64,000 nucleotides of DNA. Source: Verrucomicrobiota bacterium (GTDB lineage Bacteria; Verrucomicrobiota; Verrucomicrobiia; Limisphaerales; JADLHS01). The stretch spans positions 4,252-68,251 of the forward strand of contig JASGKY010000013.1 of assembly GCA_049840435.1 (NCBI GenBank). The letters run 5' to 3'. Both the position numbers and the translations under genes were made by a program. Shown here in pieces: positions 6,178 to 44,228 of this stretch. Below the pieces are notes generated by a model. The model made no database searches. It was not told where the DNA came from and saw nothing but the letters and a program-made list of their open reading frames with translations. The first letter of the stretch is position 1; each line of letters starts with the position of its first letter.

Positions 6178-8483
6178 TTACGGCGTGCGGTCGGTGAACT
6201 CGATCTTCACAGTTTTATCAATGTGCGATGATCCGAGTGGTTTGGGTTTTTGCACGCCTGTAATGGATTTGCGATGCGTGGCCCACCAAGTCGCGCGCTG
6301 TCCGGCGGTCCAGCGTTGCGTGAGATCGCAGGCTGCGAGTTGAGCGGCTAGCTCGCGGGCGGACGTGGGGCGGTGCGCTGGATCTTTTTCGAGGCAACGC
6401 AACAGCAGCGATTCAAATTGCGTATCTAGTGGCTGGCCCAGCCGTTGACTCGGCAGAACCGGAGTTTCCTCGAGATGCTTGCGGCACAATTCAGCGATGG
6501 TTTGGCCGTCAAAATTTCGCGCCCGGTGACAGAGGAATTCCCAGAACGCCGACAGAGTAAATGTCGCTCCGGGCGTCACATTGGTTTGGATCGCGAATCG
6601 CTTCGGCGCAATAAAGTTGGGTGTGCCGACAATGCCATCTTCGCCGGCCACTTCGCGGAGTTGCACGGCGTCGGACGCGCTGGAGATATGTTTCACCAGG
6701 CCGAAATCCAACACTTTTACGCTGTCTGGCACGCCGCCACGATCGGTGATGAAGATGTTGGCCGGCTTCACGTCGCGGTGGATTAGGCCAAGCGCATGGG
6801 CTTCGGCGAGCGATTCGCAGATGTGTTTCAAGATGTGCGCCACCCGGGCTTCGGGCTGCGCGCCGTAACGATGGACGAGTTCATGCAGGTTGAGGCCGTC
6901 GAGATATTCCATCGCATAGTAGAAAATCCCATCGGGTGTGTGGCCGTAATCGTAAACCTGGATGGTATTCGGATGCGTGAGGCGGCAGGTCAATTGCACC
7001 TCACGCTCGAAGCGTTCGAGTGAGGCCTTATCGGCCTTTTCGGGGGGCAACAGTTTCAAAGCCGTCTCGCGACGGAGCAGGGAATGGTGCGCCTTGTAAA
7101 CGATGCCCATGCCCCCTTCGCCGATTTTCTCGCTGAGTTTGTATTGGCCGAGCTGGCGGGCTTTGAGTTCGGCTTCGGTCAGGCGACGTTTCCAGATGAT
7201 TTGCCGATAAGTGAACCCGAGCACGACGAGCGCCGCGAGGATGAGCAACAGGAACAGGATCAGAAACACGCGTCGCACGACGCCGAGTGATTCAAACGCC
7301 TCGCGCGCGTCAATCTTTGTGCCGACGCCGAAACCGTATTTCGGAGCTACTGCCACGCGCCGACGACCGGCACGCCGCGATAATCTCGGAAAGGCGTGAT
7401 CTCCACGCCCGCCTCGCCTTCGATCGCGCGCTCGACCATGAGGATGAGGGGTTGTGAAGCGTTCGTGTTGGCAACGTAGCCTTGCGTGAGGTCTCCGCCG
7501 GGGTCGCGGAGCGAAAGCGTAAGCGCAGAGGTGGTGTTGGTTTCTTTGTCGAGCAGGCCGAAGTGTTGCAGTTCTTCGTCGAAGCGGCTTTGCGAAATCA
7601 ACGTTCCGGCCGTATCGAAGGCGAAGGTTTCACCGGAGTCACCGGAACGCGCGACGGAAAGGATTTTGGTGAACTCGGCATCGGGGTTGATGATTAACGC
7701 CAGTGCGCCCCGCGTTGCGCCAGCAAGGTCTTTGATGGGCGCGGCGGCTTGCATCTCGGTCAGATCGCGGGGAGGTGGCGGTTCGCCGCCGGGCGGGCCG
7801 GCAAAAGGTGGGGCTGGATTGTTGGCGGCGAACTCCGGGCGCGGGCCAAAGCCATCGCGTGGCGGACGTGGTTCATTGCCGAGGCGATTGGTGCGATTGC
7901 CGAAGCGTTGAGGAAACTGCGGCGGCTTGAGTTTGAACGGCGTGATGATGATGGGTTCGCCGTTGGTGAACAGCTCGGAATATTTCGGCTGCAATTCCTC
8001 GGGTAATTTGTTGCCCTGCCGGCTGCGCCGTCGGCCCACGTCGGAAATGATGGTGAGGTTGGTGCTCACCAAGTGAACCTTGGTGTAGCCGAGGGCGCGG
8101 ACGCGTTCCTGCAAACGCTCGCCCGCGATGAATTCGCGGGACAGTTCATTTAACACAGCGCGGTTGGTGAAGGTGTCCGCCGGTTGATCGAGCAGTTTCA
8201 GGGCGACCGCTTTCAGGCGCGGCTCATCGGCCAGGGCGGCGGCGATGCGTTTCTGGTTGGCCATCCAGATTTCCAGCGCGGTGACGTTGGCATCGAGGGT
8301 GGCGCTGAGATCGGCGCGCACTTCGCGATGGATGGTCTGGCGCAATTGGCGATCGGCCCACCAGCCGACGCTGGCAACCAGCAGGGCGAGGAGCAGCGGG
8401 ACAAGCCAGATGTGTTTCCCACGCATCATGCGCGTAGCATACTCCAAGGAAAGACGCCGGCGGGACGAAAAAGTTTCGGCCAT
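6178..8483 (-). pseudogene. Membrane Ser/Thr protein kinase with N-terminal Cache-like extracytoplasmic sensor; three frame breaks
   Basis: Kinase motifs: 'IGEGGMGIVYKA', 'ALKLL', 'HRDVKPANIF', 'DFGLV', 'GTPNFIAP'. The sensor ORF (7347..8699, true start probably 'MAETFSS' at 8483 or 'MMRGKHIWLVPLLLALL' at 8429) ends 'DYRGVPVVGAWQ*' and runs straight into 'APKYGFGVGTKIDAREAF' plus a TM segment of the kinase ORF (1-nt break near 7348-7350). Inside the kinase, 'KRFAIQTNVTPGATFTLSAFWEFLCHRA' becomes 'EAIRDPNQCDARSDIYSVGVLG..' in another frame, through compensating indels near 6600-6606 and 6511-6517. Confidence 0.75.
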
Positions 8484-8607: not shown

Positions 8608-9999
8608 ATGCAAAATAAACCAAGCCAAAACTCCATTCCGGCCTCGCGCCGCGAGTTCCTCAAGAAAACTGCCACGGTCGCTGCTGCGCTTGCGGCCACG
8701 CCGTTGGTGCGGCCGACCGTTTATGGGCAGGCCCCGAGTCCGGGCCGGGTACTGGGCGCAAATGACCGTATCAACCTTGGCTTCATCGGCGTTGGGGGAC
8801 AGGGCTTCAATGCCCATGTAAACATCTCCAGCAAGAATGCGGGTGCGAACAATATTTCGTTGGCTGCTGTCTGCGACGTCTGGTCGAAGCGTGTTGCGAA
8901 TGCGAAGGCATTCATCGAAAAGGCTGGCACCGGTGCAAACGTTGCGACTTATGGAGATTACCGCCAGTTGCTCGAGCGGAAGGACATTGATGCGGTGGTC
9001 ATCGCGACGCACGACCCAATCCACGCTGCCGCGAGCATCGGAGCGATGGAATCCGGCAAGCACGTTTATTGCGAGAAGCCGCTGACGCGTTATCTCGGGG
9101 AGGCCTTCGAAGTGCATGATGTAGTGAAAAAGACGGGGAAGATCTTGCAAGTCGGCTCGCAGGGGACTTCTGCCGCCGCGTGGCACAAGGCGGCGGAGAT
9201 GATCAATGCAGGCGAGATCGGCCAGCTCGTTTGGGCGCAAGGCTATTACTGCCGTAACAATCCGAAGGGTGAATGGAATTACCCAATTGATGCCGATGCT
9301 ACCGCCGCGACGGTGGATTGGGAAAAGTGGCTGGGGCCGGTGCATAAGCGCGTGAAGTTCGATGCCGACCATTATTTCCGCTGGCGCAAGTATTACCCGT
9401 ATTGCGCCGGGTTGTTGGGCGACCTGATGCCGCACCGGTTGCATCCGCTGATGCTGGCGATGGGCAAAACAGAGTTTCCCTCGCGCGTGGTGAGTTTGGG
9501 CACGAAAAACGTCGGCACAGACAAGAAGTTCACGCCGCCGACCTACGAGCGTGATGTGCCGGAGCATGTTGAATTGCTGGCGGAATTTCCGAGCGGCGTA
9601 TCGCTCATGCTCGCGTGCAGCACGGTAAATGCGCGCAGCCCCGGCTTTGCGCTTTATGGACATCATGCCACGTTGGAAGTCGGCTCGTCGGGCGAACGGA
9701 TCGAACTCAAGCCGGAGCGCGAGTTCGCTGATGAGATTGAGCCGAAGACGTTGGATGGGCTCAAGCCGACGGAAGACATTGGCGCGCATCATGCCAATTG
9801 GTTCGATAGCATTCGCAACAACAAGCAGCCGAACTGCGGCATCGATCTGGCCGTGCGGGTGCAGACGGTGATCACGCTGGCGGAAATGTCGCAACGCCTT
9901 GGCGTAGCTTGTAATTTCGATGCACAGACGCGCAAGGTGACGACTGGCGACGGTAAAGAAGTGAAGCCAATCACTTACGGCACGTTGGAGCTGTCATAA
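8608..9999 (+). CDS. Gfo/Idh/MocA-family oxidoreductase with twin-arginine (Tat) signal
   Basis: 'SRREFLKKTATVAAALAA' is a Tat motif. The Rossmann start 'INLGFIGVGGQG', 'DAVVIATHDPIHA' and 'GKHVYCEKP' are typical of the family. The ORF is intact at 463 aa. Confidence 0.85.
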   Translation: MQNKPSQNSIPASRREFLKKTATVAAALAATPLVRPTVYGQAPSPGRVLGANDRINLGFIGVGGQGFNAHVNISSKNAGANNISLAAVCDVWSKRVANAKAFIEKAGTGANVATYGDYRQLLERKDIDAVVIATHDPIHAAASIGAMESGKHVYCEKPLTRYLGEAFEVHDVVKKTGKILQVGSQGTSAAAWHKAAEMINAGEIGQLVWAQGYYCRNNPKGEWNYPIDADATAATVDWEKWLGPVHKRVKFDADHYFRWRKYYPYCAGLLGDLMPHRLHPLMLAMGKTEFPSRVVSLGTKNVGTDKKFTPPTYERDVPEHVELLAEFPSGVSLMLACSTVNARSPGFALYGHHATLEVGSSGERIELKPEREFADEIEPKTLDGLKPTEDIGAHHANWFDSIRNNKQPNCGIDLAVRVQTVITLAEMSQRLGVACNFDAQTRKVTTGDGKEVKPITYGTLELS

Positions 10000-10026
10000 C
10001 TGGTTGGTTGAAAACATTAGATTACA

Positions 10027-10056
10027 GCGGCAGGAAAAATCCTGCCGCTTTTTGTT
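10027..10056 (+). terminator. Rho-independent terminator after the oxidoreductase gene
   Basis: gcggcagg-aaaaat-cctgccgc forms a perfect 8-bp stem, followed by ttttt. Confidence 0.75.
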
Positions 10057-10106
10057 TGCGAGCTTGCTGCGGCGCATCAACGTCCCTAATCTCCGCGCGT
10101 TTGTTG

Positions 10107-10832
10107 ATGAATAAGACGCAAATCATCTCGTTTCAAAATCCGGAGGAACTTGCCCGCATCGTTGCTGCCGCGTGGCTCAAGGAAATTGTCGTCGCTAATC
10201 AGGCGGGTCGCCCGCACTGTGTCGCGCTTTCCGGCGGCCGCATTACCCTGAAGTTTTTCGCCGCAATGATCGAAATGTCCCGGGCGCAAAATGTTTCGCT
10301 AGGGAATGTGCATTTCTTTTGGGCGGACGAGCGGTGCGTGCCGCCGACGGACAAGGAGAGCAGCTTTGGTGCGGCGAACGAAGCGTTCTTTCAGCCCCTT
10401 GGCATTGCGTCGGACCAAATTCACCGCGTGCTGGGCGAGGAATCTCCGGAGCGGGCAATGGAGCAAGCCAATGCAGAAATCAAGCGCGTCGTGCCGTTGA
10501 ACGCCATCGGCCAACCGGTTTTAGATTTGGTTTTTCTCGGTCTGGGAGAGGACGGGCATGTGGCGTCGCTTTTTCCGCGCGAGACCGAAGCGGAGCGGGC
10601 CAACCCGGCGGTGTATCGTCTCATCACCGACTCGCCCAAGCCGCCGCCGACGCGTGTGACACTGGGCTATCCCGCCATTGCCGCGGCAAAGGCAGTTTGG
10701 GTGCTGGCCTCCGGTGCCGGCAAAGAGACGGCGCTCCGGGATTCGCTGACGGTTGGGGGCAAGACGCCACTGAGTCGGGTGCTGCAGATGCGGGTGGGAA
10801 CGCGGATTTTTACCGATATTGCCCGGGCTTGA
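10107..10832 (+). CDS. pgl: 6-phosphogluconolactonase
   Basis: 'VALSGGRITLKFF', 'VHFFWADERCVPPTDKESSF', 'DLVFLGLGEDGHVASLFP' and 'RVTLGYPAIAAAKAVWVLASGAGK' are Pgl/DevB signatures. The start is taken at 'MNKTQIISF', an internal Met of ORF 10008..10832. Confidence 0.8.
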   Translation: MNKTQIISFQNPEELARIVAAAWLKEIVVANQAGRPHCVALSGGRITLKFFAAMIEMSRAQNVSLGNVHFFWADERCVPPTDKESSFGAANEAFFQPLGIASDQIHRVLGEESPERAMEQANAEIKRVVPLNAIGQPVLDLVFLGLGEDGHVASLFPRETEAERANPAVYRLITDSPKPPPTRVTLGYPAIAAAKAVWVLASGAGKETALRDSLTVGGKTPLSRVLQMRVGTRIFTDIARA

Positions 10833-12867: not shown

Positions 12868-14259
12868 TTACTGTCCCGCGTAATACGTATCTACTTTCGC
12901 CGCCACGTCCTTGTAGCCGATGTCCGTTTCGTAGATCAGCTTGAACTGCTCGATGGCGTCCTCTTTCTTGCCCATCGTTTCGAGGATGCAGCCGAGCTGA
13001 TAGATCAATTCCTTCTTCTCCTCGTCGAGCGTCAACTTTTCCTTGATCGCTTCCTGCAGGGTCTTGGCCGCGAGGTCGTTCATTTTGCGCCGGGTAAAAC
13101 ACTGCGCCAGCCCGCTCATGGCGGCGATGCGCTTGTTTGGGTTGCCCTTGGCTTTCTGGAATTCCGCAATCGCCTCGCCGATCTTGCCCAGCCGCAGATA
13201 CAGCGTGCCCAACTCAAAGCGGAACGCGAGATCCGTCGGATATTTCTCCACCCGCTGCTGACATTCGCTGAGCTGGAAGGCCAGCTTTTCCTGCTGCAAG
13301 CGCTCTGTCTGTTCGGCGAAATCGGGCGCGGTCGGGTCCAGCAGTTCCGTCTGTTCATCGAGTTTTTTCAGCTTCACCTGCGCGATGGCCTGATCCAGGG
13401 AGGCATCGCTGCCGGCGGCTTTCAGCTTGGCGTAATACTCCAGCGCGCGGTCGAACATTTTCCGTTGCGTATAAAGCTCCGCCAGCGAGCGTAGCAGTTT
13501 GGGATTGTGGCCCTCAGTTTGGAGGCGGCTTTCGTATTCGCGCACCAGCCGGTCGTTCCCGTCTTCCGTTTTCTGCACACGCTGTTCCTGCTCCAGCGCC
13601 GCCGCCTCGGCCTCATTGCGCAGAATATCGCGGTAGGAACTGCCTTCCTCCTCCGCCTTGTGATAACCACCCTCGTTCAACGTGCGCGCGGCCGAACTGT
13701 TCTTCAGTGCCTGGTTCACGTCGGGATCGGTCGGATGGGCGGCACGCAAATCAATTAGCACCCGCTCTGCTAGCTTCACCTCGCCGATCTGGCCGAGGAA
13801 TTCCGCAAATTGGATGGTCGTGTTTTTGTCCTTGGGATTCTGTTCCCACAAAAATTCGAGCGACATTACTGCTGTGCGGGGCATGTCCAGCGCGGCGGCC
13901 GCTTGCACGATGATCTTGTGCGCCTGGGTGCTCTTGGCGTCAGCGTTCAACACCTGCTCGGCGATGGCCAGGGCTTCGAGCGGGTTGCTGTTCAACGCCA
14001 GTTGCGCCTTGGCGATCTGGGGGGCTGAGCCGGCGCTGCTGAAAACTTTTTTGAAGAACCCGCCGCCCTTTGCCGCCGCTCGGCCTTGCTGCGCCTTGCG
14101 CAAGGCTTTGCGCACCTCAACCACTTCCGGCGCCCGGGCGATGACTTGCATCAGCAGATCAATCGCATAATCAAAATTCTCCCGGCCCAGTGCGTCGTTC
14201 GCCTTGGTGAACAACGGTCGGACCTCCCGCGGAATATCACTCAAACTCTTCTCTGGCAT
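12868..14259 (-). CDS. Tetratricopeptide-repeat (TPR) protein
   Basis: The 463-aa ORF has recurring TPR-like A/L/Y-spaced helices, for example 'LRSLAELYTQRKMFDRALEYYAKL', 'FELGTLYLRLGKIGEAIAEFQKA' and 'LIYQLGCILETMGKKEDAIEQFKLI'. Confidence 0.7.
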   Translation of the reverse strand: MPEKSLSDIPREVRPLFTKANDALGRENFDYAIDLLMQVIARAPEVVEVRKALRKAQQGRAAAKGGGFFKKVFSSAGSAPQIAKAQLALNSNPLEALAIAEQVLNADAKSTQAHKIIVQAAAALDMPRTAVMSLEFLWEQNPKDKNTTIQFAEFLGQIGEVKLAERVLIDLRAAHPTDPDVNQALKNSSAARTLNEGGYHKAEEEGSSYRDILRNEAEAAALEQEQRVQKTEDGNDRLVREYESRLQTEGHNPKLLRSLAELYTQRKMFDRALEYYAKLKAAGSDASLDQAIAQVKLKKLDEQTELLDPTAPDFAEQTERLQQEKLAFQLSECQQRVEKYPTDLAFRFELGTLYLRLGKIGEAIAEFQKAKGNPNKRIAAMSGLAQCFTRRKMNDLAAKTLQEAIKEKLTLDEEKKELIYQLGCILETMGKKEDAIEQFKLIYETDIGYKDVAAKVDTYYAGQ

Positions 14260-35900: not shown

Positions 35901-36323
35901 GCGGCGGATTTATCCGGCTTGAATCCCGAAGGCATCGTCGAACTGCCGCCTGCTCCGTGGAGCAACAGCACGTCGGTGCCAATCCTCAGTGACAACGGGG
36001 CGAGTGTTTTTTATGGCGACGGCGTGGCGGCCAAGAGTCTGCCGGTGGCGAATTTCAAAAAGTGTCGGACCGATCTCGTGGTGTTGGGGGCGGTGGTGCC
36101 ACCGGCCCCCGTCATTACCGCGACCTCGTTGAGCGGCGTCAATCTCACGGTGACGTGGCGCGCGCTGGCGGGCAAAACGTATCGCGTCCAATCCAAACTC
36201 AGTCTCGCGCAAACCAACTGGCTGGATGTAGCGGGAGATGTCATGGCGACTGGCCCCTTCGCCAGTAAAGTCGTGAGCAGTGCTGGCCCACAGCTATTTT
36301 GTCGAGTCGTTGTGTTGCCTTGA
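32908..36323 (+). pseudogene. Giant secreted protein with two lamin-tail-domain (LTD)-like modules and a phytase-like/DUF3616-like beta-propeller; one frame break near 34038
   Basis: Signal 'MWKAMFAGLAIFGCSGFGVRAQ'. LTD signatures are 'LVINELLFNPPGTDAPNEYVELRG' and 'LLAELKVNPPGTNDAPHEFIELKG'. ORF 32857..34077 ends '..ITNAVSRYLAIRPSTHLRP*', while the next frame reads '..VPGDTTQYPLATLIPSVAVNIADND' into ORF 34074..36323. Confidence 0.65.
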
Positions 36324-36446
36324 TAGCCGTTGCGTTCAGCCCGGCAGCCGATCTGCGGATCGGTGTGAAGGAAATCCGGGTATGAATAACCACAATCCCG
36401 AGCTAAGCAATAGGACTGGGGGATTGCCAGAGTTGCGACTGCTTTG

Positions 36447-36821
36447 TCATTTTTGCGCCGCCCCATCACTGTGATTTGAAAGTTCAGCAACCACCACCGC
36501 GTCACGGTGTGTGGCCAAAGTCTGAACCAGCCTTCCCAGTCGGTTTGTCTGTTGGTGCAGTGAACGTAATTCTTCGCGGAGCACTGATAACTCCACACGA
36601 TCGCGTTGGGCGTCGGCCAACTCATACGTTAATGCCGTCAGCTGCATGGTTGCGTTGTCGCGTTCGCTTTGCAGTTTCTGCACATGTGCAAGCAGTGGCG
36701 TTTGTTGTTGGAGTGATTCCACCTGGCTTTGCAGCAGCACAACTTGCTGGGCTGCATAAATTCCTGCACTGGCGAGAATGGTGATGGTGGCGGTGCTGAG
36801 GGCTTTTTGCAGTGGGCTCAT
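36447..36821 (-). CDS. Hypothetical membrane-anchored coiled-coil protein
   Basis: N-terminal TM 'ALSTATITILASAGIYAAQQVVLL', followed by heptad-like 'QSQVESLQQQTPLLAHVQKLQSERDNATMQLTALTYELADAQRDRVELSVLREELRSLHQQ'. Confidence 0.5.
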   Translation of the reverse strand: MSPLQKALSTATITILASAGIYAAQQVVLLQSQVESLQQQTPLLAHVQKLQSERDNATMQLTALTYELADAQRDRVELSVLREELRSLHQQTNRLGRLVQTLATHRDAVVVAELSNHSDGAAQK

Positions 36822-36862
36822 GGTGTTGTTGAAATGGCGGTTGATTTTGATCGCCTTGGTAA

Positions 36863-36927
36863 AACAGCGATTACGTTTCCGAGACTAAAGAAGGATTGTT
36901 ACCGTGTTGCTACCGTTGCGTCTTATT
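36863..36927 (-). promoter_or_regulatory. Conserved 65-nt upstream element, copy A (11-bp-phased direct repeat TTGTTACCGTg/TTGCTACCGTt)
   Basis: Copy A is 55/65 identical to 43147-43211, with a 41-nt core at 39/41. It lies 42-106 nt upstream of the 36821 start codon. Confidence 0.6.
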
Positions 36928-36991
36928 ATCAACCAAAAGCGCAATGTCGGGATGGCACACCGCTGCCGGGCGGTGCTGCAAGGTGCTACGC

Positions 36992-37677
36992 TCAACGCTG
37001 CTCTGGAGGCTCGAAGCGATAGCCGATTTGTCGGATGGTGTGAATGAAGCTGGGACGGGCCGGATCTGGCTCGATCTTGTTGCGCAACGTGGTGACGAAC
37101 CGGTCAATGCTGCGGCTGGTGACGACGCAATCATAGCCCCAGACGGCATTGAGGATTTCGTCGCGGGTCAACGCTCGCCCCGGTTTCTTCACGAAGTATT
37201 CGAGCAGGCTGAATTCTTTGGGCGATAGCTCAACCTCCTTGCTTTTGCGGGTCAGTCTGCGGGCGGTGAGGTCGAGGCGCAGTCCGCCAAATTCATATAC
37301 GTCCTGGGTTCTTTCTTGGCGCGGCGCAGGAAGGCCGCGGCCCGGGCGAGCAGTTCTTTGATGCTGAAAGGTTTTGTTACGTAATCATCCGCTCCGAGGT
37401 TGAGGCCGAGCACGATGTCGGATTCATCGCCCTTGGCGGTCAGCATGATGATGGGCATGGTGAGCTGCTGTTCGCGAATCAACCGACAAATCTCGTAGCC
37501 GTTGATCTTGGGCAGCATGATGTCGAGTAGGATCAGATCGGGTTTGGTGTTTAACGCGGCGTTCAATCCTTTCTCCCCATCCGCGGCGGTGACGACCTTG
37601 TAGCCCTTGAACTCAAAATTATCCCGCAGCCCGATCAGCATTGTCGGGTCGTCTTCAATAATGAGCACGGTTTCCAT
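36992..37677 (-). pseudogene. OmpR/PhoB-family response regulator, frame break between receiver and winged-helix domains
   Basis: Receiver: 'VLIIEDDPTMLIGLRDNFEFKGYKV..DLILLDIMLPKINGYEICRLIR..PIIMLTAKGDESDIVLGLNLGADDYVTKPF' (ORF 37252..37677). The DNA-binding domain 'YEFGGLRLDLTARRLTRKSKEVELSPKEFSLLEYFVKKPGRALTRDEILNAVWGYD..IDRFVTTLRNKIE..IHTIRQIGYRF' is in another frame. The break falls at the tatat tract, 37295-37300. Confidence 0.8.
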
Positions 37678-37680
37678 GAC

Positions 37681-39711
37681 TTACTCCTTTCCCTCGCCAT
37701 TCCGAGGGCTGGCTGGCAACCGGACGGTGAAGGTGCTGCCGCTGCCGGGTTTGCTTTCCACGCTGATTTTCCCTTGGTGCGCATCCACGATGAATTTGAC
37801 AATGCTCAGGCCCAAGCCGCAACCCTCCGCTTTCCGTGACAGTGAGTTGTCCACTTGATAAAAGCGGTCAAAAATTTTCCGGTGATGACGCCGAGCCAGG
37901 CCGATGCCGTTGTCGGAAACCGCGAAACAAACGGCGCGGTCCTCTGGGTAGAGGCGCAGCGAAACCTTTTTATGGTCGGTGGTATATTTGCAGGCGTTAT
38001 CCAGCAGGTTGACTAGCACGGTGACGATCGCGTCGTGATCCGCCGGGAGATCCGGCAGGTCGTTCGGGATTTCCAAGGTGAGCTGGCAATCGTGGCTGTC
38101 GTACTTGGTCTTGATGGCGGCCACGGCATCGTTGGCGATCACGGTCGGTTTGGTGTCCACGATGGTGAACGCCACCTTATTCCGCTCCATGCGCGAGAAG
38201 GTTAGGAAATTATCAATCATCCGGCTGAGGCGTTCGTTCTCCTTGGCGGTCAACTCAAGATAGCGCTGCACCTGCGCTTCGTCTTTCACGCGGCCTTCCA
38301 ACAGCGTGTCCACGAGCACCCGCATCGAAGCCAGTGGAGTTTTGAGTTCGTGGGAAACGGTGGCGATGAAGTCGTTCTTCATTTCGTTGAGCCGGATTTG
38401 TCGCCCTACCGCCCGTGTGGCAAAGCCGCCGATGCTGATGATCAGCAGGATGACCAGAAATCCGGTCCACGTATAGACCGCGATCTGCCGCCGGGCGGCT
38501 TTTTCAAAAACGTCGCTACCTTCAAAATAGAGTTCCACCTTCCAGCCGGGAAAACCATCCGGCATCGCTACGGTGGCGAACGCTTTACTCTGCGGTGCTT
38601 GTGTGCCAGAAACAAAATTCCCGGCAGTATCCAGGATGCGATAGGCGGCGGCAGTGCCGTGGAAAGCGGTGTGATAACCGGAGAGCATTGCGGTGATGCC
38701 CGCATCCGATAATGCCACGAGGAGTGTGGCGGATTTCGTCCGATGTCGCAGGGCATAACAGGGTTTTCCTTCAAGCTCGGTTTGAAACAAACCATCAAAC
38801 TGACTTGTGAAGGGCTGAAGTGTTTCCGCGGCAGCGAGGGAGAATTCCTCGGCCGCGACAAGTTTTTCGAGTTGGGTTTTAGCGGCTTGGTCGGCGAAGG
38901 GGAACGGACCGCGCAATGCGGCGAGAACTTTTTGGGCGATGAAGAGATTCTGGTTTGCCGGTAGCGCAGTCTGGCTGTCGTCAGAATTGTAGAGATCATC
39001 CATCAAGGCGGTGATGGTGCGGTGGAAAATTTCTCCGTGCTGTGGCTGAGTGGATTGCTTGAGCAATGAAAGCAACAGCAGGCGCGCAGTCTCGATGGTG
39101 GGGCGCAAAGTTGGGGCAGCGTTTTCCGGAACTGTAGCGAAGGCGGCGGTTTGACATGCTGTGATTGCTTCATCGCGGCGCCCGAGTTTAGCGAGGCAGC
39201 GGCTTTTACCCGCCACCGCGCCAATTGCCACCAACGAGTCGGCATCAGTAGTGAACCGATTGTAGAGTTGCACGGCTTGGGTGTAATCGCGTTTGGCAAA
39301 TTCCTCGTGCCACGCGCCGGCCAGTGGGCTGCCGGGGGACATGTCGTTACCTGACAATTCTCCCGTTCGCGGATACACCACGGTTCCGTCCGCGTTCCAA
39401 ATCACCAGGCCCTGAAAGTTGTTTTCCAAGACAAGCCGGCGGAATGCCGCATAGGGATTTGTCCCTGGTTGGACATGGTCAAGAGTTGCCAACCGGTTGG
39501 TGAACAACGCGTCGGTTTTGCCGGCAGCTTCCGCGAGCTTGTCCTGGTAGAGCGCCGCGAGTTTTTGCCGGACAACCAGGCGTTCGTTGGCGATCACCCG
39601 GTTCATGAACCAGAGCAAGCTCACCGAGGGCAGCACAACCGCGAGGCCGAGCAGGCCGAGCCATTGCAACTGATTCCGTCTGGTGAAAAACGACCTCACA
39701 GGTTTGATCAT
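37681..39711 (-). CDS. Sensor histidine kinase with large periplasmic domain
   Basis: Two TM segments flank a ~380-aa loop. H-box 'FIATVSHELKTPLASMRVLVDTL'; N/G boxes 'LVNLLDNACKYT', 'VSDNGIGL', 'GLGLSIVKFIV'. The start ATG overlaps the stop of the upstream gene (TAATG at 39713-39709). Confidence 0.85.
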   Translation of the reverse strand: MIKPVRSFFTRRNQLQWLGLLGLAVVLPSVSLLWFMNRVIANERLVVRQKLAALYQDKLAEAAGKTDALFTNRLATLDHVQPGTNPYAAFRRLVLENNFQGLVIWNADGTVVYPRTGELSGNDMSPGSPLAGAWHEEFAKRDYTQAVQLYNRFTTDADSLVAIGAVAGKSRCLAKLGRRDEAITACQTAAFATVPENAAPTLRPTIETARLLLLSLLKQSTQPQHGEIFHRTITALMDDLYNSDDSQTALPANQNLFIAQKVLAALRGPFPFADQAAKTQLEKLVAAEEFSLAAAETLQPFTSQFDGLFQTELEGKPCYALRHRTKSATLLVALSDAGITAMLSGYHTAFHGTAAAYRILDTAGNFVSGTQAPQSKAFATVAMPDGFPGWKVELYFEGSDVFEKAARRQIAVYTWTGFLVILLIISIGGFATRAVGRQIRLNEMKNDFIATVSHELKTPLASMRVLVDTLLEGRVKDEAQVQRYLELTAKENERLSRMIDNFLTFSRMERNKVAFTIVDTKPTVIANDAVAAIKTKYDSHDCQLTLEIPNDLPDLPADHDAIVTVLVNLLDNACKYTTDHKKVSLRLYPEDRAVCFAVSDNGIGLARRHHRKIFDRFYQVDNSLSRKAEGCGLGLSIVKFIVDAHQGKISVESKPGSGSTFTVRLPASPRNGEGKE

Positions 39712-42700
39712 TATGGGACGGCTGCACCGGCGGCCAGCGCCTTGATCGCGTTTGCTCCGAGCGCGTAATTGTAGACTTGGACTTCGTCCATCAGGCCGTC
39801 GAAGCAGCGGTTGGTGTCCTGCGCATTTTCCCCGATGAGCACGTCAAAATCGTTGCGGCTGATTCCGCCGGTCCAAGCATTGGTGGAGTTGAGTTGGCCA
39901 TCAAGATAAAGACTCAGAACTTTGCCGTTGTAAGTTCCGGCGATGTGATGCCATTCGCCCGGTTGCAACCGGGTCGGGCTGTTGACAAAAACATCGTCTC
40001 CGCCGTGCTGAACCGTGTTTACGGCAAAGTGCAAGCGTTGCTCGGTTTCGACCGCAGAGAGTCGCCACGCCGTGTCCCCTTTGGTGACGAGCGCGGTATA
40101 ATTGGCTGGACCGACCGAAAGTTTACCCAGCAGGCCACGCTCGCCTGGCTGCCAAAATCAAAAGCTGACTTGTCGGCGATGCGCACAAAGCTGCCCTTGC
40201 CATCCAAATCAATCGCCCCGCCAACTTTGCCTTTGCCAAATTTGGCGTTACCCACCAGCGTGCCGTTGTGGTTACCGCCGCTGCTGTCTTTGGCGGTCGG
40301 GCCTTGTGCATCATCGAACTTCCACCAACCGATAAGTCCTGCCAACTCGGCGGTGCCGAAGGCCTGCGGATTTTTCCAAGCCGAATTGTTTTTGTCGTGC
40401 CAGCAGAGCTTGGTGTCCCGCTTGCCGCCGTCGTCGTTGTCATTGACCTGAACTTCAAGCCCGAGTTTCGCGCCCGCGGAAGGTTTCGTGCCGAGCGTGG
40501 TCCAGGGGAATTTGGCTTCAATCCGATAACCTTTTTCAGTGGTGACCAACGTGTACTGTACATCTTGGGTGCGGTCGTGCTTGGTCTCCTTCAAAGTCGG
40601 GGTGGTTTTGTCCCAGTTGAAAGCGAAAAGGTAATCGTGCTCCCCAAACTCAGCCGATTTGGAATTGTCGGCATCAAGATAAATTTCGACGCTGTCGGAG
40701 TGTGGCCATTGCTCGGCCGTCGTGTCGTGCATGAGCGTGTCGTCGCTCACTTCCACCAGCACGTAGAGATTATTCTCGTCCCACAACGCCCGGTAACAGG
40801 CGGAGAGGTCATCCGCCGATGTGGCGGGAGTTTCCAGCGAGTTTGCCAGCTTGTATTCCCGCGCGGTATTCCACCCCTCGTCCTTGCTGCCATCAATGAC
40901 CGGCGCCTTGGACGCCGGCAGGATGGTGGCGGGCGTCTGCTGTTGGAGTTTCCTGGTGGCGGACTCGGCTCGGGCCTGATCTTTGAGTTGATTGAGTTGC
41001 GTCACCGGACCGAGAATCTGATTGAGCGGTGGGATGCCGGAGAGGTTGACATTCGCGACGAACCCGTTCTGTTGTTCGTCGGTGCGAAGTTCCAGGGCCG
41101 TGGCCTCTGCTGCGTGAGCGAGTTGTTCGAGGCTGGCGTTCCAATCCTTCAATTGGGTTTCGGTCAGACTTTTGGGTGTCATTATCGGACCCAAGAGCCG
41201 GATCGCGCCGCCGGCGTTGACCAAAATCAACTTGCTCGCCGTCGGGGGAAGGCTACCGATCGCTTTCTGCAATGGTCCCGAGGTCGTGATGGATTTATAA
41301 TTCTTGATGGGTATAGCAGAAGTGCCGCGGTGCAGCGACAGGAGGGTCGTCTTGTTAATCTGATCCAGTTGACAATAAACATCCTGTCCGCCCGCCGCGC
41401 CGACTTTGTATCGGCCATTCTGCGGGCTGGCGGCGGGATTGACCGTTGCGAGCAAGGTGCTCAAAATCTGTTTCGTCTGCTCGGGATTCCGACTGGTAAT
41501 CGCCAGCCTGAGGCATTCCGGGAAAGGGGCGTTCGTCGTGGTGCTCTCCACCCGTGTCGGCAGGGCGAAAATTGTGACTTGCTCGATGTTCGCAAAAATC
41601 TCCCGCCCGATGTCCAGTCCGGTCAGGTTTTGGATCTGGGATCGGACTTGCTCGGTCTGGATTCCGGGCTGGTTCAACGAGAAACTGGCCACCGCTACGG
41701 CTTCGGCGGGCACAATTTCGAGCACGGTTTTGCTGATGTTGGGCGTGCGGATCATGTCGTACGCCAGGCAGTGATGCCCGTCTTTGAACTGGAATTCGAG
41801 CCGCATCCCAATGCCGGTGGTTTCAATGGACTCAGTGAAGATCAGATCATCAATATTCCGGAAATCCGCGAACGCGTTGGCGGACTGAAGTTGAGCTGGC
41901 ACCCGACCCGGCGGAAACATTTTCAACACCTGATCATAGCCCTCATCCACGTTGGCCCAAAGGGTCATGACATTCTTCTGACGTTGATTCTTGTTCAGTC
42001 TTGCAAAGGACTTGTTGCTGCTGGCCAGCGTCGGTTCGGAGCTCAAGTGTTTGTATTGTTTAACGCACCATTGAAGCTGGTTCGCCGGACGCGCCATGAG
42101 GACGATTTTATCGTCATAGGCCACGGCCATGTCTTCGGGGAGATTTACCACCGACAATCCTTCGATGGGAGTGCCCGTCGTCCCGGCCATGCCCAGGCCG
42201 GCCAAGATCAAACCGCGCAACGCATCACTCTTGCCCGGATACAACACCGCAATCAGCTGCGGGTGGTTTTGGCCTGCCGTGGCGATGCTGGTGACCCCGA
42301 TGGCCGAGCTGCGGATTTTTTTGAATTCCGCCATCATGCTTGGATTCAACAGTGCGCCCATGATGTCGCCTGGTGATTTCTGGCGACCGTTATTTCCATT
42401 CATGGCAGCCAATGGGTTCTCGAAGGGAGTGTCTTTGAGCATGGCCAGAACGGTTTCGATCTGGCGGCCCGGGCTGCCAAATTCCAGATACGCCAACGTC
42501 CCCGGCGGCATCAGTGCGGCGGGATCAAAATCTGTCAGGTCCTCCAGCACCGGTCGGGCTTTGTCCACCAACTCGGTCTGGCTGGCATATTCGGCCACGA
42601 GCTTTTCCAACACCGTCCGTGCGGCCGCTTCATCTTTGATCTTCAGGTAACACATCCCCTGACGATAAAGCGCTTGAGCGGCGTGCGCGGGGGGCGCAGA

Positions 42701-42868
42701 TTTGTTTTTGATGACCTCGCTGTAGATTCTGATGGCCGAATCTATGTTGCCCTCCACTTCTTCAGCGTAGAGCCCCTGTTGGAGTAGTTCGCCGGTGGTG
42801 GCGGCGCTAGTCAGATGGCTGGTCAGCGTCAAGACCATCAGAGCGATGGCAAGATGTTTGATTTTCAT
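39711..42868 (-). pseudogene. Large secreted TPR / CBM9-like / LamG (concanavalin-type lectin) protein; one frame break near 40110-40120
   Basis: Signal 'MKIKHLAIALMVLTLTSHLTSA'. TPR-like 'AQALYRQGMCYLKIKDEAAARTVLEKLV'. CBM9-like 'YRALWDENNLYVLVEVSDDTLMHD..SDSVEIYLDADNS..GYRIEAKFPW..GLEVQVNDND'. The LamG domain is split: '..AIDLDGKGSFVRIADKSAFDFGSQ..WVNF' (ORF 40019..42868) and 'GPANYTALVTKGDTAWRLSAVETEQRLHFAVNT..GEWHHIAGTYNGKVLSLYLDGQL..FDGLMDEVQVYNYAL' (frame of ORF 39711..40034). Confidence 0.7.
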
Positions 42869-42895
42869 TAAAAGTGCTGGGTTGAGTTTCTTAAG

Positions 42896-43117
42896 TTATG
42901 TTGCGTCAAGCGATACAAGATTGTTGCGAGAAAAACGGGGAAGACATCTCGGTCGGGCATGGTGATCGGCCGCCTCCCAAGCAGACATCTCAGCCGCTCG
43001 CAAGCGACGCAGTTTTTCGCGATTGCCGCTGGTAACGGGTACGCGCAACGACGGTGCGATGGGAGTAGTGCGAGAGGTCGGGGCCATGGTAGCGGTAATT
43101 TCGGTTGCTGTTTTCAT
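42896..43117 (-). CDS. Candidate small protein (73 aa), first ORF of the two-component operon
   Basis: 'MKTATEITATMAPTSRTTPIAPSLRVPVTSGNREKLRRLRAAEMSAWEAADHH..'. The ORF starts 30 nt downstream of element copy B and stops 27 nt before the next gene. There is no family support. Confidence 0.3.
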   Translation of the reverse strand: MKTATEITATMAPTSRTTPIAPSLRVPVTSGNREKLRRLRAAEMSAWEAADHHARPRCLPRFSRNNLVSLDAT

Positions 43118-43146
43118 AATCATTCCGGTTTGGAACGGCTGGGTTG

Positions 43147-43211
43147 AACAACGATTACGCCCGCCAGACTAAAGAAGGATTGTTACCGTTTTGCTACCGT
43201 CGCGTCCTTTT
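43147..43211 (-). promoter_or_regulatory. Conserved 65-nt upstream element, copy B (TTGTTACCGTt/TTGCTACCGTc)
   Basis: See copy A. Copy B lies 30-94 nt upstream of the 43117 ATG, at the head of the operon small ORF - TPR/CBM9/LamG - HK - RR. Confidence 0.6.
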
Positions 43212-43466
43212 ACCGACAAAATCACGCGCTTGTAATGGCGAGATTTCATCGGGTGGGGTGAGGGGTTTCGTTACTTTCTATTCGGGAATTATTTCTGAGC
43301 ATCACGCTAGAAAGCAGTTTGCGGCCATAACGGCAAAGGTCCCAAACGCTATTCCCAGCATCGTTAACAGTTGAAAGAGATGTGGGGGGAAACGTTTGCG
43401 TTCATGATAGATCTGAGCGGCTCGGCTGCGGACGAGATTTCCCGGCCGCTTACGCGCGAGACACAT

Positions 43467-44228
43467 TCACGTTGGCGGAAGGTTGGGAGGATCATCCCGT
43501 TCGGTGGGCGAGACCGGGGCTGGCAGCAGTCGCCCGAGGTTTTCGAGGATCGTGATCTTCTGCCAAATTTTGCGCGACAGCCCGGCCGTTAGATCCTCCA
43601 CGTCGTCCACGGCATCGAGCAGGACGGTATCTTGAAAGCCTTGGACGTAGAGCGTGGCGATCTTGCTGATCAACGCCAGCGATTCGCTGCAATAGTCGAG
43701 GTAGCGGTTCAGCTCGAACGGCGTCAACGCGCGTTTTGGAGTGGTGGCGGGACGCGCAAAGCAGCTTTCGGGATGCTTGGTCAACTGGTGCATGTCCACG
43801 ATATGGGCCAACGCCCGAAGTTCGTGGATGGCTTTCAAGGCGCGGTTGCGTTTGATGCGGTTTTCCCAGCCCACGAAGAATAGAATTGCCGCGCCGACGA
43901 ACACGACGGAGCTGATGCTGGCTTCGAGCGACTGGATGAAGTTGGTGTAGTCGTCAATTTTGAACTGGCGGATGTGCAGCAGCATTCCCGTCAAGAGGGC
44001 GATGACGACGAGACTGAGGATCGCCGCGGTCAGGCGCAGCGGGAAGTGCGGCTTTTGAATCCACTCGGTACGCGTGACGTTTTCCTGGGCGACATGCAAC
44101 AGTTCACTCGCCACCTTGCTAAGGCCCGAACCGGGAAATCGTCCTTCGATTCGGTCTTGCAGCATCCGGACGGTGGCCACGATCTCTTGCGGGTCCAGCT
44201 GGCGATAGTTCGGGTTGGGCGCGGCCAT
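43467..44228 (-). CDS. Hypothetical membrane protein (2 TM)
   Basis: Starts 'MAAPNPNYRQLDPQEIV' (internal Met of ORF 43467..44471). TM segments are 'LRLTAAILSLVVIALLTGMLL' and 'SISSVVFVGAAILFFVGW'. No family was recognised. Confidence 0.4.
   Translation of the reverse strand: MAAPNPNYRQLDPQEIVATVRMLQDRIEGRFPGSGLSKVASELLHVAQENVTRTEWIQKPHFPLRLTAAILSLVVIALLTGMLLHIRQFKIDDYTNFIQSLEASISSVVFVGAAILFFVGWENRIKRNRALKAIHELRALAHIVDMHQLTKHPESCFARPATTPKRALTPFELNRYLDYCSESLALISKIATLYVQGFQDTVLLDAVDDVEDLTAGLSRKIWQKITILENLGRLLPAPVSPTERDDPPNLPPT

Follow-up and report, generated by a model that had tools for sequence, protein, structure and literature searches.

The operon and its flanking genes

The window, the whole 64 kb stretch of DNA that was analysed, contains an operon on the minus strand whose gene content, as confirmed by Pfam, matches the order given in the original prediction: a small ORF, a TPR/CBM9/LamG protein, a kinase and a regulator. 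The genes are tightly packed on one strand, with gaps of ≤27 nt or overlaps, the regulator is the last gene, and one of two repeat copies (copy B) lies at the head. The small conserved ORF (42896–43123, minus strand; 75 aa counted from the first ATG, or 73 aa if it starts at 43117) was found by tblastn in ~20 loci and has the core motif PSLRVPVTxxNRxxLRRLRxxExxxWEA; it matched no Pfam or NCBIfam family. It is followed by the secreted TPR/CBM9/LamG protein (39711–42868, minus strand; the large protein hereafter), by a sensor histidine kinase with two transmembrane segments, a large periplasmic domain, HisKA and HATPase_c (37681–39711, minus strand), and by an OmpR/PhoB-family response regulator whose frame is broken (36992–37677, minus strand). 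Beyond the regulator, an ORF at 36447–36821 (minus strand) encodes a 124-aa protein, hydrophobic at its N-terminus and containing a coiled coil, that is identical to NCBI QM813_03585.

A one-base frameshift near 40100–40105, in the context cca[a]att, splits the gene for the large protein into 40019–42868 and 39711–40034, while intact orthologs of the protein are 1050–1100 aa long. The break in the regulator is a contraction from A3 to A2 at 37309–37310; intact 228-aa orthologs are present in relatives, and with one A put back the sequence reads RRAKKETQDVYEFGG, just as in the intact regulator of the related locus L123. Both frameshifts are thus AAA→AA contractions, and both are probably assembly errors; if the one in the regulator were real, the circuit proposed below would be broken in this organism. 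To see whether frameshifts are common throughout the window, four overlapping ORF pairs were run through Pfam; they looked like separate or unannotatable genes and say little on this point, and the A-run context of the two shifts was the better guide. The repaired regulator, which was also aligned with its orthologs, carries Response_reg (PF00072) and Trans_reg_C (PF00486), so that an OmpR/PhoB-family protein is available at the locus. Among solved or named proteins, its nearest relatives are MtrA, RegX3, RpaA/RpaB, YycF and PhoP. It reached none of the NCBIfam equivalog thresholds (PhoB, 223.6 bits against a cut-off of 296.2), the kinase likewise fell below that for PhoR (204.1 against 334.2), and the gene context holds no pst or pho genes. 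On these two grounds, we rejected an assignment to the Pho regulon proper (PhoR/PhoB).

The repeat copies bracket the operon. Copy B (43129–43221, minus strand; PWM score 61.8 bits) occupies the promoter at the operon head, and copy A (36845–36937, minus strand; 52.1 bits) lies between the stop codon of the regulator and the coiled-coil gene. The identities originally reported for the quoted 65-mers, 55/65 overall and 39/41 in the best 41-nt window, are exact, as are the positions of the 65-mers. The ungapped similarity covers both 93-nt intervals (74/93, 80%), which makes the pair (repeat family D1) the top direct repeat of the 64 kb window. That the window holds no third copy is borne out by the 35-nt core AGACTAAAGAAGGATTGTTACCGTnTTGCTACCGT, which occurs exactly twice, and by the 21-nt double half-site described below, which also occurs exactly twice even with three mismatches permitted and was matched in 0 of 100 dinucleotide shuffles. 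The copies do share one orientation, each upstream of a minus-strand ATG (60 nt away for copy A, 42–48 nt for copy B), and the weaker similarity said to reach into both 5′ leaders is real (alignment A2), bringing the shared length to ~110–150 nt. Copy A is best read as a ~110–150 nt duplicate of the whole promoter and leader. The distal edge of copy A is also touched by one arm of an inverted pair (I11; 27 nt, 78% complementary) whose partner lies 26.8 kb off at 10095–10121, and which looks like a chance match.

Anatomy and conservation of the tandem site

Read in the gene direction, the site consists of an A-rich tract and AAAAGGAC, then AC(G/C)GTA(A/G)CAA-A-ACGGTAACA. The proposed pair of 10-nt direct half-sites with an 11-bp period, ACGGTAGCAA-n-ACGGTAACAA, was found in both window copies and in 75 orthologous sites. 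In copy B, half-site 1 lies at 43191–43200 (logo positions 1–10) and half-site 2 at 43180–43189, 11 bp downstream (positions 12–21). The conserved AAAAGGAC (43204–43211; positions −10 to −3) precedes half-site 1 by 3 nt, and a −10 hexamer, TAGTCT (43166–43171; positions 30–35), follows half-site 2 by 8 nt. In copy A, likewise on the minus strand, the half-sites lie at 36907–36916 and 36896–36905, the upstream element is AATAAGAC (36920–36927; a 6/8 match to the logo consensus AAAAGGAC) and the hexamer is again TAGTCT (36882–36887), with TAGACT or TAGGCT in its orthologs.

In a logo of 60 unique sites, a TAnnnT hexamer follows half-site 2 at exactly 8 nt, a gap that is invariant, with A31 in 60/60 and T35 in 58/60 sites. 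Of the two −10 sequences proposed earlier, TAGTCT is this conserved hexamer and stands, and TTTAGT finds no support in the conservation pattern or the spacing. Either half-site was also considered as a −35 element and rejected on pattern and spacing. Where a −35 would be expected, 17±1 bp before the hexamer, the 60-site logo matched TTGACA at ≤2/6 positions, and a scan of 36300–43600 for the sigma-70 consensus gave no match at either copy; the latter fits an activator-dependent promoter that lacks a −35 and is thus no counter-evidence. The site therefore holds the fixed place relative to the core promoter expected of an OmpR/PhoB-type operator, with an 8-bp gap to the −10 and no −35. From the hexamer to the first start codon, the leader measures 47–58 nt in most loci, including all loci in which the large gene comes first.

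Upstream, AAAAGGAC carries 1.2–1.7 bits at each position, against ~0.05 bits at positions −39 to −23; like the hexamer, it lies outside the search pattern. It may act in the manner of an UP element or provide a third, degenerate contact, and a simple dimer model does not account for it.

Conservation was surveyed with an alignment of three large-protein orthologs as the scan query, which gave 80 metagenomic loci. Five of these begin inside the large gene; all 75 loci with upstream DNA have a single site ahead of the operon, in the orientation of its genes and in the same register, scoring ≥35.8 bits in 71 and 24–28 bits in four. Conservation at orthologous two-component loci, on which the original prediction staked itself, thus extends even to loci in which the large protein is just 42–45% identical. 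In each locus of sufficient length, the kinase ortholog follows the large gene, and the genes for the large protein, kinase and regulator are co-linear. Of 8,000 candidates scored, at least 643 are homologs of the large protein at E ≤ 1e-30, and the best 120 listed come from MAGs and metagenomic contigs only. The two-component system occurs widely among uncultured Verrucomicrobiota and Planctomycetota.

Could the decamers be the mere trace of a recent segmental duplication of a constitutive promoter, without operator function? The shared ~110–150 nt, leader included, exceeds what an operator needs. Over the 60 unique sites from very divergent loci, however, conservation peaks in the decamers and the −10 while the flanks are unconstrained, and in four lineages the decamers and TAGnCT of copy A have survived the drift of their flanks; we regard this reading as very improbable.

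The element is also strictly associated with the operon and the coiled-coil gene, and it is not dispersed. Over 1.23 Mb of related sequence, every strong match lies directly ahead of a gene start: on both strands, the sites above 35 bits other than those at operon heads are copy A of the window, L052_406 and one in L017, each just upstream of a gene. An exact-pattern scan of 185,579 representative genomes, which exclude the window's own genome (the in-genome sites examined being the two in the 64 kb), returned 41 loci, of which only L026, L033, L025 and L017 belong to the system; the remainder are unrelated contexts, namely Cloacimonadota arrays, an Acidobacteriota element and sites near tRNA genes. 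We give next to no weight to a role as a leader structure or riboswitch, or as a MITE-like mobile repeat. Copy A does fold better than shuffles (z = −2.7), and some Cloacimonadota genomes contain dispersed tandem arrays of TTGYTACCGT, but copy B has no such advantage over shuffles (z = +0.6), the leader pairing partner is missing from orthologs such as L033, and the conserved −10 comes only after the repeats. Rfam gave no match at either copy, only a tRNA elsewhere in the window; with the inconsistent folds and the position of the repeats, this led us to reject a cis-regulatory RNA. A dispersed repeat or MITE was rejected in view of the two copies in 64 kb and the fixed position before orthologous genes; no terminal inverted repeats were seen at copies A and B, and the repeat search did not pair the copies as inverted arms.

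A predicted activator-dependent promoter and its probable binder

Direct repeats of 11 nt are a documented binding geometry of PhoP/PhoB-type regulators, and the sites described here have their 11-bp period in common with the 11-nt repeat units reported for PhoP of Streptomyces coelicolor (PMC2275107). The pho box of E. coli PhoB is likewise built of two direct repeats, each a ~7-bp core with an A-rich 4-bp linker (CTGTCAT-AAAA, compared with CGGTAAC-AAAA here), and both kinds of site lie ~8–10 bp upstream of the −10 in place of a −35. The pho box is bound by a winged-helix OmpR/PhoB-family regulator, and PhoB autoregulates its own operon. Half-sites in direct repeat one helical turn apart are the norm in the OmpR family, and MtrA, RegX3, WalR/YycF, ArcA and KdpE belong to autoregulated systems with tandem half-sites, as proposed here. 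The system differs from Pho in its core sequence and in the additional conserved AAAAGGAC upstream; its kinase, with the large periplasmic domain, does not have the PhoR architecture, and the regulated genes encode the secreted TPR/CBM9/LamG protein and small envelope proteins, with no phosphate-uptake neighbours.

We propose, with a probability of about 75%, that copies A and B are activator-dependent sigma-70-type promoters bound by the operon's regulator, with copy B giving positive autoregulation and copy A driving the coiled-coil gene. The half-sites would take the place of a −35, ending 8 bp upstream of the TAnnnT hexamer, and the phosphorylated OmpR/PhoB-type regulator would bind both as a head-to-tail dimer and recruit RNA polymerase. 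Transcription would start ~7 nt after the −10, near 43159 for copy B and 36875 for copy A. Copy B, which lies in the promoter of the regulator's own transcription unit, an arrangement seen again in every locus of sufficient length, would then positively autoregulate the operon from the small ORF through to the regulator, while copy A, a duplicate of promoter and leader from roughly −40 to +60, would extend the same control to the 124-aa coiled-coil membrane protein.

The tandem site is most likely bound by the adjacent response regulator, an identity that we infer from the sequence, as we do the sign of regulation. The regulator is 72–96% identical even where the large protein is 42–45% identical, and its recognition helix RSIDRFVTTLRNKIE hardly varies from locus to locus. 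Since the assignment draws on co-localisation and co-conservation, another OmpR-family protein could bind. It is unlikely, in our estimation, that the repeats serve a transcription factor encoded elsewhere, of the OmpR family or unrelated, and that the adjacent regulator has other targets. A second, paralogous OmpR-type regulator is indeed encoded within the operon in many distant loci, with a different helix, whereas the operon in the window's clade has a single one; each locus has one site, confined to this operon and to genes lying next to it, and the site is co-inherited with the regulator that carries the near-invariant helix.

Activation is preferred to repression because of the position of the site and the missing −35. 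The same regulator bound to the same site could instead occlude RNA polymerase over the −35 and spacer, in negative autoregulation. The site spans roughly −41 to −21 from the predicted start, and some OmpR-family proteins repress from such positions. Against this, no locus has a recognisable −35 (≤2/6), so that the promoter should be weak unaided, and the layout mirrors that of pho-box promoters, which are activated; we therefore hold negative autoregulation to be unlikely. Positive autoregulation, as preferred here, is a clean but ordinary bacterial kind of self-regulating circuit, in this case from an uncultured member of the Verrucomicrobiota.

Copy A, promoter duplication and the wider system

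Homologs of the 124-aa coiled-coil protein were absent from the first 121 loci by tblastn; the protein database holds three clusters of them, at 68–72% identity. All are encoded directly downstream of the regulator, behind a copy-A site of 48–56 bits with TAGnCT at unchanged spacing. Orthologous copy-A sites thus occur in four related lineages (L122, L123/124, L130 and L134), in one of which, L134, copies A and B lie on one contig; the close relatives L131, L132/133 and L135 have neither the coiled-coil gene nor copy A. Control of the coiled-coil gene, as originally suggested, is supported, because copy A has been retained ahead of the gene in four other lineages.

More tentatively, the ~110–150 nt unit, comprising the UP-like AAAAGGAC, two half-sites, the −10 and a ~50-nt leader, might be a portable, regulator-dependent promoter cassette that was copied independently several times in a PVC-wide system, though we think this less probable than not. 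With each copy, one more small envelope protein would join the three-part sensing circuit of secreted TPR/CBM9/LamG co-sensor, kinase and regulator. The cases observed are the coiled-coil gene of the window's clade, an 81-aa membrane/coiled-coil ORF in L052 and a DUF4097 'toastrack' lipoprotein in L017. Pairwise BLAST of the 124-aa protein against the L052 ORF gave a weak, gapped match (E = 7e-5) of coiled-coil composition.

Our literature search returned no description of this system or of the half-site ACGGTA(A/G)CAA. In Shewanella, the two-component system PghKR has a kinase with a CBM9-like periplasmic domain, a putative sensor of glycan fragments from the cell wall (bioRxiv 10.1101/2023.05.05.539549). 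In PghKR the CBM9 domain resides in the kinase, whereas here it resides in a separate secreted protein and in a different phylum, and the likeness, drawn from domain association, is a loose functional analogy only.

Together, half-site, spacing, −10 and leader length give this uncharacterised two-component system a cis-regulatory code that is precise and testable, of use for annotation, for the design of DAP-seq experiments and for building reporters in PVC bacteria, and they leave the current understanding of OmpR/PhoB-type regulation unchallenged. The predicted regulon is very small, consisting of the system's own operon and, in some lineages, one small envelope protein, and copying of the whole promoter would be the route by which it gains members. 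If the cassette reading were true, the system would offer a natural case in which a regulon built around an uncharacterised glycan or envelope sensor grows by duplicating its promoter.

The repeat pair and the genes behind it

The two 65-mers of the original prediction were recovered in place, with 55/65 identical positions overall and 39/41 in the core. The ungapped similarity is in fact wider than 65 nt, covering 36845–36937 (copy A) and 43129–43221 (copy B, which heads the two-component operon) with 74 of 93 positions identical (80%), and this pair is the top direct repeat in the 64-kb window. The weaker similarity proposed for the leaders is also present, since a gapped alignment carries it down both leaders to the start codons; in the upstream direction it reaches about −40. 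As claimed, the window holds no third copy: a 35-nt core occurs twice, as does the 21-nt double decamer even at three mismatches, and none of 100 dinucleotide-preserving shuffles matched either of them.

The gene content around the copies, in ORFs and domain assignments, is as first described. Copy B is followed on the minus strand by a small ORF (42896–43123), a TPR/CBM9 protein (40019–42868) with a LamG fragment continuing it (39711–40034), a histidine kinase (37681–39711) and an OmpR/PhoB-type regulator (36992–37677), and because these genes overlap or are separated by at most 27 nt, they form one operon. Copy A occupies the 170-nt gap between the regulator and the minus-strand gene of a 124-aa coiled-coil protein whose N-terminus is hydrophobic (36447–36821), beyond which lies a convergent DUF3616 gene. 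The regulator and the large TPR/CBM9/LamG gene each contain one frameshift, at gaa[a]ccc (37309–37310) and cca[a]att (near 40100–40105), respectively, both reading AA for the AAA of orthologs. With one A put back, the regulator is about 96% identical overall to the intact ortholog of locus L123 and, at the mended junction, reads RRAKKETQDVYEFGG, an exact match to it. Given this match and the A-run contractions, both frameshifts are probably homopolymer assembly errors and not signs of decay or pseudogenes.

The small first ORF is 64–97 aa long, with the conserved core PSLRVPVTxxNRxxLRRLRxxExxxWEA, and matched no family in Pfam or NCBIfam. It is confined to the window's close clade (L033 7640–7801, L042, L045 and about 20 other loci), where the promoter leads into it, whereas in distant clades the promoter leads directly into the large gene.

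Conservation and anatomy of the promoter

Two loci in Verrucomicrobiota MAGs, L026 and L033, came out of an exact-pattern scan of representative genomes; their sites both head the same operon type as copy B and share its wider context, with TAGTCT or TATTCT at equal distance. A metagenome scan, queried with an alignment of three large proteins, gave 80 loci, and a position weight matrix derived from the first matches was run over both strands of the 1.23 Mb of collected sequence. Conservation at orthologous two-component loci was confirmed: one site lies ahead of the operon, on its strand, in all 75 loci with upstream DNA, scoring at least 35.8 bits in 71 and 24–28 bits in four, and the five loci devoid of a site all begin inside the large gene. 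Above 35 bits, the scan gave just three further sites: copy A of the window, one in L017 and a second tandem copy in L052. This pattern contradicts a neutral duplication without an operator role, and the restriction of the site to this operon disfavours the binding of a different protein to the repeats. A mobile repeat was rejected, as only two copies exist in the window and their position before orthologous genes is fixed; an RNA element was likewise rejected, with no match in an Rfam scan and single-sequence folding that is inconsistent between the copies.

A logo built from 60 unique sites, numbered with the first nucleotide of half-site 1 as +1, holds nearly zero information from −39 to −23, followed by an A-rich tract (−22 to −17), an upstream element AAAAGGAC (−10 to −3), the half-sites AC(G/C)GTA(A/G)CAA, A and ACGGTAACA (+1 to +20), a weakly constrained 8-nt gap (≤0.7 bit per position) and a −10 hexamer (T/C)AnnnT (+30 to +35; A31 in 60/60 sites, T35 in 58/60). 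The search pattern partly fixed the repeat cores and left AAAAGGAC, the hexamer and the spacing free, so these three features provide independent support. In most loci, among them all those in which the large gene comes first, 47–58 nt separate the hexamer from the first start codon. Transcription is predicted to start near 43159 (copy B) and 36875 (copy A). Relative to such a start, AAAAGGAC and the A-tract fall at about −64 to −45 and could serve as a weak additional contact or an UP-like element. Judged by its sequence, the site is supported as an OmpR/PhoB-type operator and promoter.

The layout matches a class II promoter of the pho-box type: two 11-bp units, each combining a 7-bp core with an A-rich linker, are placed 8 bp upstream of the −10 and stand in for a −35. 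This comparison is based on the organisation of the pho-box promoters bound by PhoB; 11-nt repeats are also described for Streptomyces PhoP (PMC2275107). A −35 sought 16–18 bp from the hexamer across the sites is absent, with at most two of six positions matching. Repression by the same bound regulator is less likely than activation, being disfavoured by the missing −35.

The same decamers occur in unrelated settings. The Cloacimonadales chromosome OY759316.1 carries a dispersed element of three to four tandem TTGCTACCGTA units, with at least nine occurrences in one genome (L004, L005, L011, L012, L019, L020, L031, L034, L039), and further arrays lie in UBA6097 (L014, L022, L028, L030); the arrays are preceded by inverted copies (ACGGTA...TACCGT). 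The Cloacimonadales element has a 10-mer in common with the present operator, but its context is different. Acidobacteriota and Binatus MAGs (L001, L007, L015, L024, L029) share a conserved element, roughly 110 nt long, that includes TTGTTACCGTTTTGTTACCGT and then TTTTGGCATACTTC..GTGCGATTGGAGACGAAAGTGGGGGAGAG; it is flanked by complementary arms CACTCTCC/GGAGAGTG and is without a match in Rfam. Two Planctomycetota MAGs (L016 4648–4680; L040 3983–4003) carry TTGTTACCGTTTTGTTACCGTGGTA(G/T)AAT, with a tRNA gene about 65 nt away. It reads as a putative promoter (−35 TTGTTA, 17-nt spacer, −10 TAKAAT), and the decamers apparently have a different role there from that in the present operator.

Additional copies of the promoter

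The coiled-coil protein behind copy A is QM813_03585 at NCBI, on a 201-kb Verrucomicrobiota MAG contig. Its homologs fall into three clusters (68–72% identity), all directly following an intact 228-aa regulator, and the intervening spacers hold a 48–52 bit site with both half-sites and a correctly spaced TAGGCT. L134, from a different genome with a 72% identical large protein, has both copies on one contig, copy B at 6658 (59.0 bits) and copy A at 13177 (55.9 bits). The equally close relatives L131, L132/133 and L135 have neither the coiled-coil gene nor copy A, and their convergent DUF3616 gene comes straight after the regulator. Copy A and the gene thus behave as one accessory module, the site being retained wherever the gene is. 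In L122 (2927–4526) and L130 (3674–4477), two further genes follow the coiled-coil gene on the same strand, one for a 267-aa protein and the other for an Rce1-like (CPBP) intramembrane protease; the window is without both. L122 also carries a TIR (CAP12-PCTIR) plus prokaryotic STING gene (9685–10623) about 7 kb from the operon.

Other loci carry independent extra copies. In L052 the duplicated promoter precedes an 81-aa membrane/coiled-coil ORF and in L017, which shares a MAG with operon locus L025, a DUF4097 'toastrack' lipoprotein gene, with control predicted in both. The first gene of the L026 operon encodes an 86-aa membrane protein.

The regulator as candidate binder

Every locus of sufficient length shows the large protein, kinase and regulator in co-linear order, and regulator identity stays at 72–96% even where that of the large protein falls to 42–45%. 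The regulator's predicted recognition helix, RSIDRFVTTLRNKIE, hardly varies among loci, in keeping with the invariant GTA(A/G)C core. Many distant loci (L056, L059, L067, L069–L075, L084–L094, L100–L102 and others) have a further OmpR-type regulator, a paralog (52–67% identical) inserted after the kinase and before the conserved regulator; its recognition helix differs from RSIDRFVTTLRNKIE. The operon's regulator itself is a standard family member, with MtrA, RegX3, RpaA and PhoP as its nearest solved relatives, and scores under every NCBIfam equivalog cut-off, the best being PhoB (223.6 versus 296.2 bits).

In the best-supported model, in which binding, transcription start and direction of control are inferred, the phosphorylated regulator would occupy the half-sites as a head-to-tail dimer and activate both promoters. 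Copy B would thereby confer positive autoregulation on the operon and copy A control of the coiled-coil gene. A literature search found nothing on this two-component operon or its operator. The operator and promoter, undescribed before and conventional in type, belong to an uncharacterised PVC-wide two-component operon.
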